From a virus (taxonomy: Duplodnaviria; Heunggongvirae; Uroviricota; Caudoviricetes): DNA of 64,000 bases. Each line of letters opens with the position of its first letter. The stretch's first letter is position 1. The position numbers were made by a program, and so were the translations under genes. The notes below the pieces were generated by a model. It ran no database searches. It was given only the letters and a program-made list of their open reading frames with translations, and had not been told where the DNA came from. Of the stretch, positions 26,501 to 37,774 are shown in pieces. The stretch is from IMG/VR virus record IMGVR_UViG_3300043399_000676. One strand, given 5' to 3'.

Positions 26501-27872
26501 TGCACAAGGACCACAAGGGGTGCAAGGCTCACTTGGTGCTCAAGGACCACAAGGATTCATTGGTGCACAAGGTGTGCAAGGAGCAGCAGGAGCAGCAGGA
26601 GCACAAGGTGTACAAGGAGGACCAGGTCCACAAGGACCACAGGGAAGACAGGGTGTACAGGGAGCAACTGGTCCACAAGGACCACAGGGTGTACAGGGGG
26701 CGACTGGTACAATTCCAGGTAATGTTGTTACAACTGATACCAATCAAGATATCACTGGACAAAAAACATTTAAGGCAAATACTTATGTAACCAACGCAGT
26801 TGTAACTCTTAGTAATGCTGCAATTACCTCAAATAGTAACGTTACTCTTACTGGTTCAGGTGTCATAAGCATTGCCTCTACTACAGCAGCAACGACTAGT
26901 TCTACAGGAGCACTAGTAGTAGGCAATTCTGTAGGTATAGGTGGTTCTAATGTGTATGCCGCTAACAACATTGTTGGTGCTAATGTTACGGGTGTTATTA
27001 ACGTTAATGGGGGCAACGGTAGCTTTACTTCGTTAAATGCGAGCGGGAAAGTAACATTTACTGTAAATTCAGGAAATGTCACGCTTACAAGCGATGACCT
27101 TGAACTTAGCCCTTCAGGTAACGTTAGGATTAGTCCAACTGGGTTATATGGACAATTATTTATAAATCCTACAGTCACTGGAGATATTGATAATGTTAAC
27201 ATAGGTAGAACTACTGCAAGATTAGGTAGGTTTACTACTATTACGGGAACAAACACCGCAAGCTCAACTTCTACTACAACAGGTGCACTTGTTATCGCCG
27301 GCGGTGCGGGCATAGGAGGCAACGTTTATGCAAGCAACCTATTCTCAACCGGAGGAGAATTGACATTAACCTCATCCGGAGGAAAAATAAAATATGACGG
27401 AACTAATCAATTATTAGTGCTATCTGCTGGATCATCAGCACAAGCAAATATTACGTTAGGATTAGTAGGTCCTGTAATTGGTGGTCTATTGATTGCAAAT
27501 GGCAATATAAGTTCAGGTGGAAACATTAGTGCTGCATATGATGTTATAGCATACTCAGGCTCTGACAGAAGACTAAAAGCAAATATTAAACCAATTTCTA
27601 ATGCACTTGATAAGATATCAAAGATAACTGGAGTTGAATTTGATTGGCTAAATGTAAACGAATCTGATATCGACGGATACTTCCGTAGAAAGCATGACAT
27701 CGGTGTTATTGCACAAGAAATCGAAGAGGTCTTACCAGAAATTGTAGGTACACGACAAGATGGTATGAAGGCGGTAAAATATGATAGGATCGTAGCTCTA
27801 CTGATTCAAGCAATAAAAGACTTGAATGAGGAAGTTAAGGTTCTTCGTAATTTGATCAAGGGGAATAAATAA
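23595..27872 (+). CDS. Long tail fibre/spike protein with collagen-like repeats and a C-terminal intramolecular chaperone (peptidase S74-like)
   Basis: N-terminal [18 protein letters not shown] domain, long G-X-S and G-X-Q triplet runs, and C-terminal SDRRLKANI...[15 protein letters not shown] followed by a coiled coil. Confidence 0.85.
24817..26715 (+). repeat. Gly-X-Y triplet repeats: (G-X-S)n at ~24817-25890 and (G-X-Q)n at ~25897-26190 and ~26428-26715
   Basis: Seen in the translation and in many near-identical 9/18/27-bp units. Confidence 0.93.
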
Positions 27873-27945
27873 TCATGTTCAAAGATTTATGCTGTGAGTC
27901 CCACAGCGTAGGCCCTAGAACGGTCCAATTTTAAGGAGAAAACAA

Positions 27946-29061
27946 ATGGGACGTCCTATTAAAAAGAAGTTTTTTGGAAGTTTAAACGTACCGGCTATTG
28001 GTGGTGAGAGTGTTTCGTCAACATTAGTCGTAGGCGGAACTAATAACAATTATACTGCAATACCAACATTTACATTTGGCTTACCTGAGTTGCCAGGTGG
28101 CGTAAGAGCGACTGGTGTTGTTTCAACGATGGTTGCTAAAACTGCTACTGTCACAACATCTGGTACTGGGGCAGCAAATGCTGATTATGAACCAGGTGAC
28201 GTATTAACCGTTGTCGGTGGTACTGGTACTGCTGCAACATTTACTGTCGCTAGTGTAAAGATCAGAACAGCCGGAGTACAGAATCAAGGAACTGGAACTT
28301 GGGTTACTGGAGATACCTTTACGTTTAGTACAGGGTTTTCAACACCTGCAGTTTTAACAGTAACTGCAACTGCCGGTGTTATTGATGGAATTACAATCAC
28401 TGATGCAGGTGTTAAGAGCACTGCTCTCACAGCCGACCCAGTCACACCTGATTCAACTTCAAATGGTGGCGGTGTTCAGGGTGTAAGTTTTAACTTAGGG
28501 TTTGGCGTAAATGCTGTGACTGTTGCATCGGCAGGTTCATACACAGTATTACCTAGTAATCCAGTCGCCACGACTACCGATAGTGCAACTGGAACTGGCG
28601 CAACATTAAGTGTAAGTTATGGCATCGGTACTGCTACATTAACTAACGCAGGTTCAGGTTATACATCTGTTCCAACTGCAACGATGTCTGGTGGAAATGG
28701 CACAATTACTGCATCATTGACTAACACTACACAAAATGCACTTAGTTTTGTAGCATTTGTGCCAGGGGGATCAAGTGCTGTTGCAGGTGACATTGTAAAG
28801 CAAGAATCCTCAAGACGTTACTTAGTCACAACTGGTCAGGGAACTGGTCAATGTAGATTAGTAGCAACCGCGCCAGGCGAAGGTGAGATGAGACTTACCG
28901 CACTAGACAGCGACGGTGGCACTTATTATGTTCTAAAGTTATCTGCAAGAAGAGCATTAGTTGTCAGAGGAACAGGGACACAATTTTCAACAGGTCAATC
29001 AGTACCTTGGACGTTAGATGCACCGACTGCTAACGAAACAGTTTCAGTAGCAAGCGTGTAA
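27946..29061 (+). CDS. Virion structural protein (MGRP-type N-terminus, Gly/Thr/Ala-rich beta repeats)
   Basis: Late box at 27866-27871, very strong RBS, TxAGSGYTSxPT-like repeats. Confidence 0.6.
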   Translation: MGRPIKKKFFGSLNVPAIGGESVSSTLVVGGTNNNYTAIPTFTFGLPELPGGVRATGVVSTMVAKTATVTTSGTGAANADYEPGDVLTVVGGTGTAATFTVASVKIRTAGVQNQGTGTWVTGDTFTFSTGFSTPAVLTVTATAGVIDGITITDAGVKSTALTADPVTPDSTSNGGGVQGVSFNLGFGVNAVTVASAGSYTVLPSNPVATTTDSATGTGATLSVSYGIGTATLTNAGSGYTSVPTATMSGGNGTITASLTNTTQNALSFVAFVPGGSSAVAGDIVKQESSRRYLVTTGQGTGQCRLVATAPGEGEMRLTALDSDGGTYYVLKLSARRALVVRGTGTQFSTGQSVPWTLDAPTANETVSVASV

Positions 29062-35150: not shown

Positions 35151-35558
35151 ATGAACAAAGTCCGTGAATATCAAGATTTATTCGAATCTATTATTTCAGA
35201 ACTAACCGAAGACTGGCAAAAGGTAAACAAAAAAGATAAAACTGACGGAATGAGCAGGAAAGCCGTCAAAGCATACCGCAGAGAAAACCCAGGAAGTAAA
35301 CTAAAAACCGCAGTCACTACTAAACCTAGTAAACTAAAAAAAGGCTCCAAATCTGCAAAGCGTAGAAAATCATTCTGTGCTAGAATGACTGGCATGAAAA
35401 AATCTCGGGCTAGTGCCAAAACAAAAAGAGATCCAAATAGTCCAATCAATAAAGCGTTGAGACGCTGGAACTGCGAGTCTGTAGAGAATCTAGAGCATTT
35501 GGTAAGGTTAGCCGAGCATAAAATAGAAAAACTTAGAAGGCAATCTTTGATCAGTTGA
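35151..35558 (+). CDS. Highly basic late protein (DUF6321-like module)
   Basis: YRRENPGSKLKTAVT...RRKSFCARM.GMK...NKALRRWNC; late box at 35124-35129. Confidence 0.6.
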   Translation: MNKVREYQDLFESIISELTEDWQKVNKKDKTDGMSRKAVKAYRRENPGSKLKTAVTTKPSKLKKGSKSAKRRKSFCARMTGMKKSRASAKTKRDPNSPINKALRRWNCESVENLEHLVRLAEHKIEKLRRQSLIS

Positions 35559-35622: not shown

Positions 35623-35817
35623 ATGGACATAGACAAAAATTCAGTTCAGGAAAGAATGGCAGAGTTGATGCAGTTGATAGATAACTCTATACAACTCATT
35701 GATTCTGAGGAAGAACTATTAATGTTAGCTTGTGCTATGCAGCAAAGAACGAGAGAAATATTTGATTCCGTTCTAGGGGTTGAGGGTAGAAAAATGATGT
35801 TTAAGGAACTTACATGA
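35623..35817 (+). CDS. Hypothetical protein
   Basis: ORF with AAGGA RBS. Confidence 0.72.
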   Translation: MDIDKNSVQERMAELMQLIDNSIQLIDSEEELLMLACAMQQRTREIFDSVLGVEGRKMMFKELT

Positions 35818-36224
35818 CAAAACAAATTGATTTAAACAAATACAAGGACTTCGTCCAAGCAGTAACAAGTGAAGCCAGCAATGACACAGAGGTATTTATT
35901 GCTAGGGTTCGTGAGCTTAGTGCCTTGGGCGTAAATGTCCCTCTTCTAATGACAGGTGGAATCGGACTGGCAAGCGAAAGCGGCGAGTTTAATGAAATCG
36001 TCAAAAAGATGCTATTCCAAGGTAAGCCATACAATGAAGACAATCGTTTTCATATGATGCGTGAACTAGGTGACATTGGTTGGTACTGGATTAATAGTTG
36101 CAGAGCACTAGGATATGACCCTAATGATGTACTAGCAGAAAACGTACACAAACTGGAATCTCGTTATCCAGGTGGAACGTTCGACGCATTCTATTCAGAG
36201 AATCGCAAAGAAGGCGATCTGTAA
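35814..36224 (+). CDS. mazG: MazG-like nucleoside triphosphate pyrophosphohydrolase
   Basis: GLASESGEFNEIVKK and ELGDIGWY motifs. Confidence 0.88.
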   Translation: MTKQIDLNKYKDFVQAVTSEASNDTEVFIARVRELSALGVNVPLLMTGGIGLASESGEFNEIVKKMLFQGKPYNEDNRFHMMRELGDIGWYWINSCRALGYDPNDVLAENVHKLESRYPGGTFDAFYSENRKEGDL

Positions 36225-36229
36225 TTCAT

Positions 36230-36251
36230 ACGGGCAGCAATGCCCGTTTTT
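36230..36251 (+). terminator. Intrinsic terminator
   Basis: ACGGGCA-gcaa-TGCCCGT-tttt. Confidence 0.8.
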
Positions 36252-36254
36252 CAT

Positions 36255-36630
36255 TGATCAATAGGTAATCATACACCTGGGAGTATGACGGTAATCCGCC
36301 CTTACAAGTGAGGCGGTAGCGGGTGAGATCAACACCAATTTACGGGACTACCCTTTGATGCCTAAACGTCTGTCCAATGACAGAAACGTTTCCCGTATCT
36401 TAATGGTTGAAGTTGCCGAGTCATAGTAATAGCGATAGAGGGCTCGGGCTGGTTGGGACTACCCGATGAACAATGTTCCAGCATAACAGCGCATATGGCA
36501 AATTCCTATATGGTTGGCGAGACATAGACAATCCTCCGCCGTGATTTTTGAATTCATCGTCGCATCTTTTATAGAGCCTCAAGAATGATGGGTTTTATTT
36601 TGGCGAGTAGATCATATCTACTCGCCTTTG
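36255..36630. ncRNA. Candidate large structured non-coding RNA
   Basis: ORF-free ~380 nt in an otherwise packed genome, visibly GC-richer, with at least 8 consecutive or nested helices ending in a 10-bp terminator-like stem (36602-36626). Family not recognised. Confidence 0.6.
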
Positions 36631-36684
36631 CCTAAGAATGATGAAAAAGAAAAAACAACACCTGAATAAAAAATACACTTAAAG

Positions 36685-36736
36685 TTCCATTAAATAAATA
36701 ATGTTAACTGATTAACATTCAGTCTTATTTAAGGAA
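36685..36736 (+). promoter_or_regulatory. Late boxes (36691-36700) inside an RBS-sequestering hairpin
   Basis: TTCC-a-TTAAATAA pairs with TTATTTAA-GGAA; inner stem AATGTTAA/TTAACATT. Confidence 0.65.
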
Positions 36737-36744
36737 ATAAAAAA

Positions 36745-36951
36745 ATGGATAACACTACAGTGGAACAAATCAAAGCCGCAGTTGAGGCGTGGGTTAAAGA
36801 AGACGAAAAATTTAGTAAAGGCAATGCAGCTGCCGGCACGAGAGCTAGGAAAGCACTTGCTGAAATCGGAAAGCTAATTAAAGCACGCCGTAATGAAATT
36901 ACTGCTGAGAAAAACGCAAGAAAAGCAGAGAAGGAATCCGCTAAGAAATAA
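36745..36951 (+). CDS. Histone H1-like (Hc1-family-like) small basic protein
   Basis: KGNAAAGTRARKAL motif; Lys/Ala-rich. Confidence 0.72.
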   Translation: MDNTTVEQIKAAVEAWVKEDEKFSKGNAAAGTRARKALAEIGKLIKARRNEITAEKNARKAEKESAKK

Positions 36952-36972
36952 GTCTTAGCTAACGTCTGATAG

Positions 36973-37004
36973 ATCTCCTGATGATAAATACGTCATCTGG
37001 AGAT
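36973..37004 (+). promoter_or_regulatory. Late box (36985-36990) in the loop of an RBS-sequestering hairpin
   Basis: ATCTCC-t-GATGA pairs with TCATC-t-GGAGAT. Confidence 0.72.
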
Positions 37005-37009
37005 TTTTT

Positions 37010-37774
37010 ATGGCTACGGCAATGACATTGGATCAACTAAAAGAAGAACTGTTCGAAAACATTCGATACCGGTTAGGCTCAGGGATCGTGGACATCGAGG
37101 CAGATCCAGAGCATTTTGAGGCTGCTTATAAGTATGCTTTAAAGGTATATCGTCAGAGAGCGCAAAACGCCACGAACGAATCATACACCTTGATGACAAT
37201 AAACAAACATCAAAACTCATATATTCTCCCTTCAGAGTTTATAAATGTAAGACAAGTGTTCAGACGTACAGTTGGACTAGAAACGGGGCCTGCCGCGTCT
37301 TCATTCGACCCATTCAGTAGTGCTATTCTTAACACTTACCTGTTGAACTATAACTACGCTGGCGGTTTGGCTACATATGACTTCTATGCTCAGTACATTG
37401 AGTTGGCTGCTAGAATGTTTGGTGGGTATGTAATTTTTACTTTTAACCCAGTTACCAAAGAATTAAAAATGGTTCGTGATCCAAAAGGTCAAGGTGAGCA
37501 AATATTAATTTGGGGAGACTTAGAAAGGTCTGAATCTGAGCTTCTACAAGATCCAGGTTCTGGAATTTGGATAGGAGATTGGGTTTTCTCTCAAATCAAA
37601 TATACAATAGGTGAAGCAAGAGAAAAATTTGCAACAATTGCAGGACCGAGTGGCGGTAGCTCGTTGAACGGGGCTGCATTAAAAGCTGAAGCAAAAGATA
37701 TGCAAGAAAAGTTACTTAAGGATCTGCAACTTTATACTGACCATTCACAACCTTTGACTTGGGTAATTGGATAA
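37010..37774 (+). CDS. Neck/head-tail adaptor protein (T4 gp13-like)
   Basis: RLG..IVD.E...GEAREKFATIAGPSGG.SLNG..LKAEA pattern. Confidence 0.78.
   Translation: MATAMTLDQLKEELFENIRYRLGSGIVDIEADPEHFEAAYKYALKVYRQRAQNATNESYTLMTINKHQNSYILPSEFINVRQVFRRTVGLETGPAASSFDPFSSAILNTYLLNYNYAGGLATYDFYAQYIELAARMFGGYVIFTFNPVTKELKMVRDPKGQGEQILIWGDLERSESELLQDPGSGIWIGDWVFSQIKYTIGEAREKFATIAGPSGGSSLNGAALKAEAKDMQEKLLKDLQLYTDHSQPLTWVIG

Follow-up and report, generated by a model that had tools for sequence, protein, structure and literature searches.

Several large ornate bacterial or phage RNAs of unknown function, such as GOLLD and ROOL (Rfam RF01998 and RF03087; cryo-EM in PMC12286853), are many-helix molecules with pseudoknots that are carried by phages as non-essential modules and were found only by comparative genomics. 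T4-like phages additionally carry group I self-splicing introns (td, nrdB and sunY; RF00028), with a pseudoknotted core, invariant joining segments and optional GNRA hairpins, while candidate structured RNAs have been predicted en masse from IMG/VR (Fremin and Bhatt 2023, PMC10690425). Here we describe an RNA element of about 390 nt in a 64,000-nucleotide stretch of a tailed-phage genome (IMG/VR record IMGVR_UViG_3300043399_000676; hereinafter the window). Like GOLLD and ROOL it is a large pseudoknotted RNA in phages, but it shows no sequence or structure match to any of them, is not next to tRNA genes and occurs in freshwater T4-like phages. It resembles the group I introns in its phage type, size, pseudoknotted core, invariant joining segments and optional GNRA hairpins; however, it is not inside a gene or tRNA, does not match RF00028, has a different pseudoknot topology and shows no identifiable P1/P10 or exon context. 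As in riboswitch expression platforms and Mg2+-type compaction switches (for example the M-box), one of its strands has two mutually exclusive, evolutionarily maintained partners, one local and one in a distant, highly structured domain, though it has no known aptamer, is not in the 5' leader of a defined gene, lacks a U-tract after the hairpin in most members and is about 2-3 times larger than typical riboswitches. Like the RNase III processing hairpins of phage T7 early mRNA (R1.1 type) and the processed T4 tRNA/stable-RNA cluster, it appears to be embedded in a polycistronic phage transcript, and a long irregular terminal hairpin (linker:box 2 lower stem, asymmetric internal loop, t:t' upper stem) could define and protect a 3' end; its lower stem, however, is weak (-3 to -9 kcal/mol), and the hairpin strand also pairs with a loop of the core. 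It comes from the same data source and is the same kind of object as the IMG/VR candidates, and may be among their roughly 10,000 unnamed motifs. We found no description of it in the literature, including the main text of that study, though its supplements lay outside our search.

The stretch at 36225-36744 (520 nt) is the longest in the window without an ORF of 60 aa or more, and its GC content of 0.45-0.465 exceeds both that of the whole window (0.395) and that of the flanks (0.36-0.42). It is organized as follows, with all features on the + strand:

35814-36251 (+): upstream context, comprising the mazG gene (35814-36224) and its terminator-like hairpin with a U-run (36230-36251), which abuts the RNA
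36250-36640 (+): the whole structured RNA element, whose conserved block runs from the 5' strand of helix a to box 2
36254-36336 (+): 5' pseudoknot domain; helix a (36254-58) pairs with the loop of hairpin f (36328-32), hairpin f is 36322-25/36333-36, hairpin c is 36269-74/36283-88 with its loop ACCT (36275-78) pairing with AGGT (36263-66) as pseudoknot b, and hairpin d is 36296-300/36312-16
36341-36397 (+): stacked hairpin g/h/i, with helix g at 36341-47/36391-97, h at 36364-68/36387-91 and i at 36370-74/36379-83, and invariant unpaired GACTACC and GATGC inside it
36398-36415 (+): conserved single-stranded joiner J (ATCTTAATGGTTGA), where some relatives carry an extra GNRA-capped hairpin
36416-36447 (+): hairpin k (36416-22/36441-47) with an 18-nt conserved loop, of which segment Lk (36431-39, AGCGATAGA) is complementary to strand t'
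36448-36490 (+): hairpin l/m, with helix l at 36448-51/36487-90 and m at 36453-58/36476-81; its loop carries CGATGAA (36464-70), the 5' strand of pseudoknot n
36499-36559 (+): helix o (36499-502/36547-50), enclosing small hairpin p and hairpin q (36516-21/36535-40), with an almost invariant 13-nt interval between the q strands (36522-34, ACATAGACAATCC), followed by TTCATCG (36553-59), the 3' strand of pseudoknot n
36560-36587 (+): first copy of a repeated 3' module, namely TCGC (r', 36560-63), a small variable hairpin and box 1 CCTCAAGAATG (36577-87)
36588-36627 (+): U-rich linker (36588-36601) and terminal hairpin t/t' (36602-12/36616-26), with an invariant 3' strand t' (ATCTACTCGCC plus W at 36627) and a 5' strand that varies but stays complementary
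36630-36640 (+): box 2 (GCCTAAGAATG), the second copy of the repeated motif and the last conserved block
36685-37774 (+): downstream context, comprising a window-specific Hc1-like gene (36745-36951), the late-promoter-in-hairpin (about 36975-37000) and the neck/head-tail adaptor gene (37010-37774)

The flanking genes were assigned by Pfam MazG and PHROG MazG-like matches upstream, and by Pfam Hc1 (1.8e-14) and phrog_211 (head-tail adaptor) downstream. The initial annotation had inferred from the sequence alone an undescribed structured phage RNA in this region, and this inference is supported, albeit without deciding among the scaffold, decoy and long regulatory leader that it offered. Both bounding hairpins that it listed exist, namely the mazG terminator at 36230-36247 plus a U-run and the GGCGAGTAGAT/ATCTACTCGCC hairpin at 36602-36626. 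Most of its helices are kept across the family with compensatory changes: TCATAC/GTATGA, CCGC/GCGG, GGTG/CACC, ACGGGA/TCCCGT enclosing AAACGT/ACGTTT and CTGTC/GACAG, CCGAGTC/GGCTCGG and GGCG.AG/CT.CGCC. In contrast, instead of the proposed GCTGG/CCAGC (36448-82) the family supports GCTG 36448-51/CAGC 36487-90 plus TTGGGA 36453-58/TTCCAG 36476-81, while the proposed CATAT/ATATG (36492-36512) is specific to this window, the family instead having CAAA/TTTG (36499-502/36547-50) around a small CCC/GGG hairpin. Of the repeats it noted, GGTAATC does occur twice and both copies of GGGACTACCC are present (36344, 36455), but the second of the latter is not conserved. The proposed GGTAG/CTACC pseudoknot is 97% pairable but never covaries, and is thus unproven. 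A single-sequence minimum free energy fold is only mildly better than shuffles (z = -1.7); the evidence that this is more than chance is comparative rather than thermodynamic.

To better understand the distribution of this element we searched for homologous loci. The intergenic region is 74-81% identical in relatives. The q-loop motif alone retrieved 74 IMG/VR loci, all of which are true homologs, a k-loop motif added 20 more, including divergent members, and a further 54 were recovered from metagenome contigs. In total the element recurs in over a hundred uncultured freshwater phage sequences, with about 95 loci in IMG/VR and 54 in metagenome contigs (partly the same contigs), and 85 distinct near-full-length sequences in all; individual loci are designated below by L-numbers. 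A search with the family profile (nhmmer) aligned 36247-36693 and showed a single copy in the window, and conservation is 0.7-0.98 per block inside the element, falling to 0.36-0.6 outside. A q-loop motif search of about 185,000 prokaryote genomes gave 9 hits, all chance matches in unrelated sequence, with the hit in a Limnohabitans metagenome-assembled genome lacking the rest of the element. Likewise, distant-mode blastn against cultured phages found only mazG, or nothing when queried with the RNA alone or with the divergent member L181. Against Rfam 15 (4227 models, including GOLLD, ROOL, HEARO, OLE, raiA, RNase P, tmRNA, 6S, riboswitches and small ribozymes) the only gathering-score hit in the window is freshwater-2 at 27871-27948; within the element there are only chance-level hits (E = 2.4-9.6), with no relevant match at E<=10, and nothing falls in the element in 11 homologous loci at E<=10. 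ARAGORN detected no tRNA or tmRNA in the window or in 24 homologous loci.

Comparative analysis supports sixteen helices, including three pseudoknots or long-range pairings with compensatory changes. RNAalifold predicted 45 pairs, of which 36 are compensatory. In our full model of 72 scored pairs 97.4% of cells are canonical, and 50 pairs show double changes, covering 487 cells against 121+-13 in shuffles, whereas only 34-46% stay canonical when partners are slid. The same helices were recovered from the 85 distinct sequences. There are 116 G-U cells against 32 A-C cells, indicating that the + strand is the RNA; the initial annotation had already taken several G-U pairs to point to RNA rather than DNA structure. 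In the 5' domain (helices a-i), where the 5' end is locked into a hairpin loop, all 5 pairs of helix a carry double changes (92% canonical), 3 of the 4 pairs of helix b covary, helix d is 99% canonical, and helix g is 99.7% canonical with 6 of its 7 pairs covarying. Helices c and f are kept with many different stem sequences, and helix i with more than 20 stem variants. In the 3' domain (helices k-q), which is closed by pseudoknot n, helix k is 99.7% canonical with all 7 pairs covarying and 42 G-U cells against 1 A-C, helix l is 100% canonical, and helix m is 93% canonical with all 6 pairs covarying. Helix n is 98.9% canonical, and divergent members change both strands together (ATGTTTC/GAAACAT in L168 and ATGAAAG/CTTTCAT in L129). 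We found no covarying partner for the q loop or joiner J among the 85 sequences; pairing of J (UCUUA) with the boxes (UAAGA) was rejected because box variants are not compensated in J, and a reading of CCUAAG/UAUGG as an 11-nt tetraloop-receptor is not supported by relatives.

Interestingly, the invariant 3' strand t' can pair either with its neighbor t, as a stable local hairpin, or with the distant loop segment Lk of hairpin k, and both pairings are supported by covariation. The t:t' hairpin is predicted in 51 of 53 family members, at about -11 to -20 kcal/mol, with a conserved upper stem of 8-13 bp. The Lk:t' pairing has 9 pairs at 97.9% canonical, 2 of them covarying: the W31-W27 pair splits A-U 23/U-A 27, with about 5 independent coincident changes on a tree, and C33-G24 switches to U-A in 6 sequences. 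This suggests a two-state element, although the Lk:t' duplex (-8.5 kcal/mol) is much weaker than t:t' (-19.8 kcal/mol), and the long-range state may need a partner or may be transient. Pairing of Lk with r' (36559-63) is possible (-7.3 kcal/mol) but covaries worse than Lk:t', with 5 mismatched cells. Box 1 and box 2 change in parallel in L108, L122, L168, L143, L087 and L090. Box 2 is weakly complementary to the U-rich linker, with compensatory variants in L108 and L168 only.

The element is an accessory module of uncultured freshwater T4-like myoviruses and a second group of tailed phages, sitting between the last gene upstream of the structural genes (mazG or a small ORF) and the late-promoter hairpin of the neck gene. 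Relatives with 62-86% identical MazG have a gap of only 48-92 nt between complete mazG and neck genes, holding just the late-promoter hairpin (CTCCAGATAAATA..CTGGAG), and no neighboring gene is specific to loci that carry the RNA. In 42 of 48 loci helix a starts within 40 nt of an upstream same-strand stop codon (median 16), suggesting that the RNA is probably co-transcribed and processed. We infer that it has no promoter of its own in most loci and would be made as the tail of the mazG-side transcript, presumed from T4-like genome organization to be early/middle, and trimmed out, as T4 does with its tRNAs and small stable RNAs. In the window no promoter or clean terminator defines the transcript, and the terminator-like hairpin immediately upstream means that synthesis would need read-through. 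Hints of a standalone unit are a sigma-70-like site just upstream in L181 and a terminator about 60 nt downstream in L183.

Taken together, we interpret 36250-36640 as the gene of a previously uncatalogued non-coding RNA, for which our best guess, with a probability of roughly 0.6, is a trans-acting RNA expressed before the late genes. This remains an inference; the sequence was found only in DNA runs from freshwater and wastewater metagenomes and in no RNA run, and no partner, target or catalytic signature was identified. On this view the t'/Lk and t'/t alternatives form a two-state element, the irregular linker-t-t'-box 2 hairpin may be where the 3' end is processed or stabilized, and the invariant unpaired segments (the q loop, joiner J, the k loop and the two concertedly evolving CCU(C)AAGAAU boxes) would be contact sites for a host or phage partner, in host takeover or counter-defense.

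A less favored but possible alternative is a cis-acting regulatory RNA at the boundary with the structural genes, in effect a very large riboswitch-like attenuator or insulator, in which a large sensor domain (for a ligand, ion or protein) would decide whether t' forms the local hairpin or docks on Lk, setting how much upstream transcription, or which mRNA form, continues into the structural genes. Mutually exclusive pairings with three-way covariation are typical of expression platforms, and the element is embedded in a read-through path with no promoter of its own. Its orientation toward the downstream structural genes also fits such a role: in the T4-like loci it lies upstream of the neck gene and points the same way, in L100, L168 and L181 it lies 2-3.5 kb upstream of the large terminase, and in L183 it is upstream of a virion structural protein. 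However, the t/t' hairpin is followed by CCAUUGCC in most members, or by CCUUUGCC, rather than a U-tract, so it is not a canonical intrinsic terminator, and a terminator scan does not call it. In T4-like loci a late promoter sits between the RNA and the next gene, so the main late transcripts do not contain the RNA, and in this window the Hc1 gene also intervenes. Furthermore, in L183 a terminator separates the RNA from the next ORF, in L093 the structural genes found lie upstream of the RNA, and close relatives manage the same junction without it.

A self-processing ribozyme appears unlikely but remains possible, be it a new self-cleaving or self-trimming class that excises itself from the polycistronic transcript, or a highly reduced relative of the group I introns, with the duplicated UCGCC...CCU(C)AAGAAU modules acting as alternative substrate strands docking on Lk. 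The many pseudoknots and long invariant unpaired stretches recall ribozyme cores, GNRA-capped optional hairpins are present, the element would need excising from a longer transcript, and both near-identical 3' modules can reach Lk. Against this, the group I covariance model does not match at E<=10 in 12 members, and no known small-ribozyme family matches. The supported long-range pairings are of the hairpin-loop-to-distal-strand (H-type) kind, namely a with the f loop, n with the m loop and Lk with t', and not the group I order P3-(P4-P6)-P7-P3'-P8-P7'; the only P3/P7-like crossing (GGTAG/CTACC with helix g) has no covariation and encloses just one small hairpin. There are no exons; the upstream ORF ends before the element, empty sites show intact neighbors, and the apparent hammerhead-like CUGAUGA box is base-paired in helix n.

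A DNA-level element (a replication origin, packaging or recombination site, or remnant of a small mobile element) is more improbable still. The presence/absence polymorphism at a hot spot for insertions, and the direct repeats (box 1 and box 2) flanking a perfect 11-bp inverted repeat, which resembles a target duplication around a tiny palindromic insert, are compatible with it. Nevertheless, covariation keeps Watson-Crick and G-U pairing in 16 helices with a G-U excess on one strand only, which duplex DNA function does not predict, and there are no iterons or terminal inverted repeats at the element's ends. Finally, a decayed or very small protein-coding gene can be all but dismissed. Short ORFs of 40-94 codons do occur by chance on both strands, and in this window a 16-codon ORF runs from the AUG of box 1 to the UAA of box 2; however, the longest open stretch lies in different frames and on different strands in different members, variable columns show no 3-base periodicity (72/72/73 by codon phase), and the small box 1-box 2 ORF is interrupted by TAG in the L010 group and lacks an AUG in the L116 group.

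A possibility more speculative than our main interpretation, though not a remote one, is that this is a new class of large functional RNA comparable to GOLLD, ROOL or OLE, or to a new ribozyme, whose compact double-pseudoknot core would use Lk to capture one of two duplicated 3' strands. It could be a gated RNA machine (a self-processing ribozyme, or a sensor responding to a ligand or protein), or an RNA that assembles with itself or a host factor during early infection of freshwater bacteria. What is new here is the RNA class, in that we found no homolog or matching architecture, rather than a demonstrated new mechanism. Large natural RNAs with many pseudoknots and long invariant unpaired segments are rare, and almost every such class that has been characterized turned out to be a ribozyme, a ribonucleoprotein core or an unexpected RNA-only assembly. 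The present family is well defined, with an alignment deep enough to support an Rfam family, chemical probing and cryo-EM, and its unusually clear, evolutionarily maintained alternative pairing offers a direct starting point for biochemistry. Its confinement to phages and its optional presence within a lineage point to a role in host takeover, phage competition or counter-defense rather than housekeeping.

The stretch 36225-36744 is the longest part of the window with no ORF of 60 aa or more (520 nt), and its core has a GC content of 0.45-0.465, against 0.395 for the window. It is bounded upstream by the terminator-like hairpin of mazG (36230-36247 plus a U-run) and ends with the perfect hairpin GGCGAGTAGAT/ATCTACTCGCC (36602-36626). 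The flanking genes are those named in the initial annotation: the upstream gene matches Pfam MazG, whereas the downstream gene (36745-36951, + strand) encodes an Hc1 histone-like protein (Pfam PF07432, E = 1.8e-14). Beyond the Hc1 gene lie a neck/head-tail adaptor gene (phrog_211) and then a dNMP kinase. The Hc1 gene is specific to this window, being absent from all 80 related loci that we examined. Two genes upstream of mazG, the window encodes a 135-aa basic protein (35151-35558, + strand) that carries DUF6321 and also matches the C-terminal ends of several much longer PHROG families of unknown function. Interestingly, a second, already catalogued structured RNA motif is present in the same phage window, namely a full-length match to the Rfam family freshwater-2 RNA (RF02980) at 27871-27948 on the + strand (56.5 bits against a gathering score of 49.9). 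On its own the sequence of the intergenic element folds only slightly better than shuffled sequences (z = -1.7 on the + strand and -1.4 on the - strand); hence, single-sequence thermodynamics does not establish anything.

To investigate if the element is conserved, we fetched relatives of MazG from IMG/VR and found that 10 of 80 loci carry a 74-81% identical copy of the intergenic block. The most conserved motif, GAGACATAGNCAATCCTCC, retrieved 74 viral loci, all of which align over the whole element in nhmmer searches. A second motif from another loop added 20 loci that lack the exact first motif, including four clearly divergent members of the family (the loci L168, L181, L183 and L180). A scan of metagenomes gave 54 further full or partial copies among 83 pattern hits, some of them on the same contigs as the IMG/VR loci. 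Several copies (loci L103, L134, L140, L198, L238, L244 and L252) lie on very long contigs of 267-387 kb, so some carriers appear to be jumbo-sized phages. In contrast, a search with the first motif of one genome per prokaryote species gave 9 hits, all of which are chance matches in unrelated sequence, and cultured phage genomes have no copy. The window itself has one copy, and the sequencing runs containing the window are freshwater metagenomes.

RNAalifold applied to 53 distinct sequences predicts 45 pairs, of which 36 show compensatory double changes. A search for stacked covarying columns, combined with inspection, gave the following model.

Structural elements of the RNA, in window coordinates on the + strand.
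36254-58 / 36328-32: helix a, in which the 5' end pairs with the loop of hairpin f.
36263-66 / 36275-78: pseudoknot b, which pairs into the loop of hairpin c.
36269-74 / 36283-88: hairpin c.
36296-300 / 36312-16: hairpin d.
36322-25 / 36333-36: hairpin f.
36341-47 / 36391-97: helix g, stacked with h and i.
36364-68 / 36387-91: helix h.
36370-74 / 36379-83: helix i.
36398-36415: joiner J, conserved and unpaired.
36416-22 / 36441-47: hairpin k, with an 18-nt conserved loop.
36448-51 / 36487-90: helix l.
36453-58 / 36476-81: helix m, whose loop strand CGAUGAA is the 5' strand of n.
36464-70 / 36553-59: pseudoknot n, formed by pairing with UUCAUCG.
36499-502 / 36547-50: helix o, enclosing p and q.
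36516-21 / 36535-40: hairpin q, with the almost invariant loop ACAUAGACAAUCC.
36560-36640: 3' module, comprising strand r', a small hairpin, box 1, a U-rich linker, hairpin t/t' and box 2.

Over the 72 pairs that we scored, 97.4% of cells are canonical and 50 pairs have double changes. These changes cover 487 cells, against 121+-13 when partners are shuffled, and sliding the partners by 1-3 columns drops pairing to 34-46%. G-U cells outnumber A-C cells 116 to 32, and 42 to 1 in helix k, which indicates that the + strand is the folded strand. The divergent members give striking compensations: helix n changes from AUGAAU/AUUCAU to AUGUUU/AAACAU in L168, and helix a becomes CUAAUC/GAUUAG in L183. 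A realignment of 85 sequences recovers the same helices, but finds no pairing partner for the q loop or joiner J. Optional inserted hairpins are capped by GNRA or UUCG loops. The GGTAG/CTACC pseudoknot proposed in the initial annotation is pairable in 97% of cells but never varies, and is hence neither supported nor refuted.

No evidence was found for a coding function. Variable columns are spread evenly over the three codon phases (72/72/73), and the longest stop-free stretch sits in different frames and strands in different members. A 16-codon ORF running from the AUG in box 1 to the UAA in box 2 exists in this window but is broken in other subgroups. Rfam 15 has no match at the gathering score; at E<=10 there are only chance-level snoRNA or sRNA hits in the window element, and nothing in the element of 11 other members. 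ARAGORN finds no tRNA or tmRNA in the window or in 24 loci. The element is not described in the papers that we could search, though it could be an unnamed entry in the IMG/VR catalogue of about 10,000 candidate structured RNAs, the supplements of which were not among the material searched.

To better understand the genomic setting of the RNA, we compared its neighborhoods. In T4-like contigs the order is a phrog_11903 protein, MazG, zero to two small ORFs, the RNA, the late-promoter hairpin, the neck gene and dNMP kinase, followed by HNH on the minus strand. Many relatives with 62-86% identical MazG have only 48-92 nt between mazG and the neck gene, and this gap holds just the hairpin CTCCAGATAAATA...CTGGAG (for example at L008:3410-3450, a locus lacking the RNA). 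The loop and 5' arm of this hairpin, which in the window lies at about 36975-37009, hold a T4-type late promoter (ATAAATA), while its 3' arm holds the GGAG ribosome-binding site. Other relatives carry small ORFs at this position instead. Across the 80 loci (L001-L080) the gaps at this junction range from 48 nt to 2.1 kb and hold different small + strand ORFs, a 210-277-aa ORF, or the RNA. The RNA is therefore an optional insert at a hot spot for accessory DNA, and no neighboring gene is specific to the loci that carry it. Helix a begins a median 16 nt after the stop codon of the upstream same-strand ORF, and within 40 nt in 42 of 48 loci, which leaves no room for a conventional promoter. In a second, non-T4-like setting (loci L100, L129, L168, L181 and L183) the RNA again follows a small ORF or a divergent intergenic region, and precedes a run of small ORFs and the large terminase or a structural protein. 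Within this group, the RNA lies 2-3.5 kb upstream of a phrog_2 large terminase in L100, L168 and L181. L181 has a weak sigma-70-like site just upstream of the RNA, and L183 has a clean terminator about 60 nt downstream.

In the 3' module, strand t' (36616-27) is invariant, whereas its local partner t varies but stays complementary, and the hairpin is predicted in 51 of 53 members. The same t' is also complementary to a segment of the loop of hairpin k (Lk, 36431-39), a pairing that has 9 pairs at 97.9% canonical. The position just outside the hairpin (36627) pairs with 36431 as A-U in 23 sequences and as U-A in 27. On a tree these two columns change 6 and 8 times but the pair state changes only 9 times, which implies about five coincident double changes. 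The pair 36433-36624 switches from C-G to U-A in 6 sequences, and t changes with it. This three-way covariation argues for two alternative, selected structures, although in isolation the hairpin is far stronger (-19.8 against -8.5 kcal/mol). In addition, the motif UCGCC...GCCU(C)AAGAAU occurs twice, as r' plus box 1 (36577-36587) and as t' plus box 2 (36630-36640). The two boxes, which flank the terminal hairpin, evolve in concert, showing the same substitutions in both copies within a lineage: AGUAA in both boxes in the family member L108, AGAAGAU in both in L168, ACCU in both in the L122 group, and AGG and AGA variants in L143, L087 and L090. This points to a shared partner or gene conversion. 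No internal partner that covaries convincingly was found: the U-rich linker plus the first bases of t is weakly complementary to the boxes, with compensatory variants in L108 and L168, but we regard this pairing as tentative.

The element is a real, conserved, phage-restricted, non-coding, multi-pseudoknot RNA family on the + strand; it is an accessory insert and contains a strand with two evolutionarily maintained partners. We infer that it is transcribed as the tail of the upstream mazG-side operon, the early/middle timing of which is assumed from T4-like genome organization, that it is then processed, as T4 processes its tRNA and stable-RNA cluster, and that it acts in trans through its invariant loops. 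The main alternative is a cis-acting switch at the boundary with the structural genes, and the orientation of the RNA and its bistable element fit this reading. However, there is no U-tract after the hairpin, a late promoter intervenes, a terminator separates the RNA from the next ORF in L183, and many relatives do without the element. A self-processing ribozyme is a smaller but attractive possibility, though membership in the group I class fails on the covariance model, on topology and on exon context. Explanations at the level of DNA or of coding capacity are poorly supported.

As we found no family, architecture or paper that matches, we consider it a new RNA class whose function is unknown. 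Its closest analogues are the large ornate phage or bacterial RNAs GOLLD and ROOL, with the resemblance being in kind rather than ancestry. The presence of divergent members of the family, such as L100, L168 and L181, in a different and apparently non-T4-like phage backbone suggests horizontal transfer of the RNA module between phage lineages.
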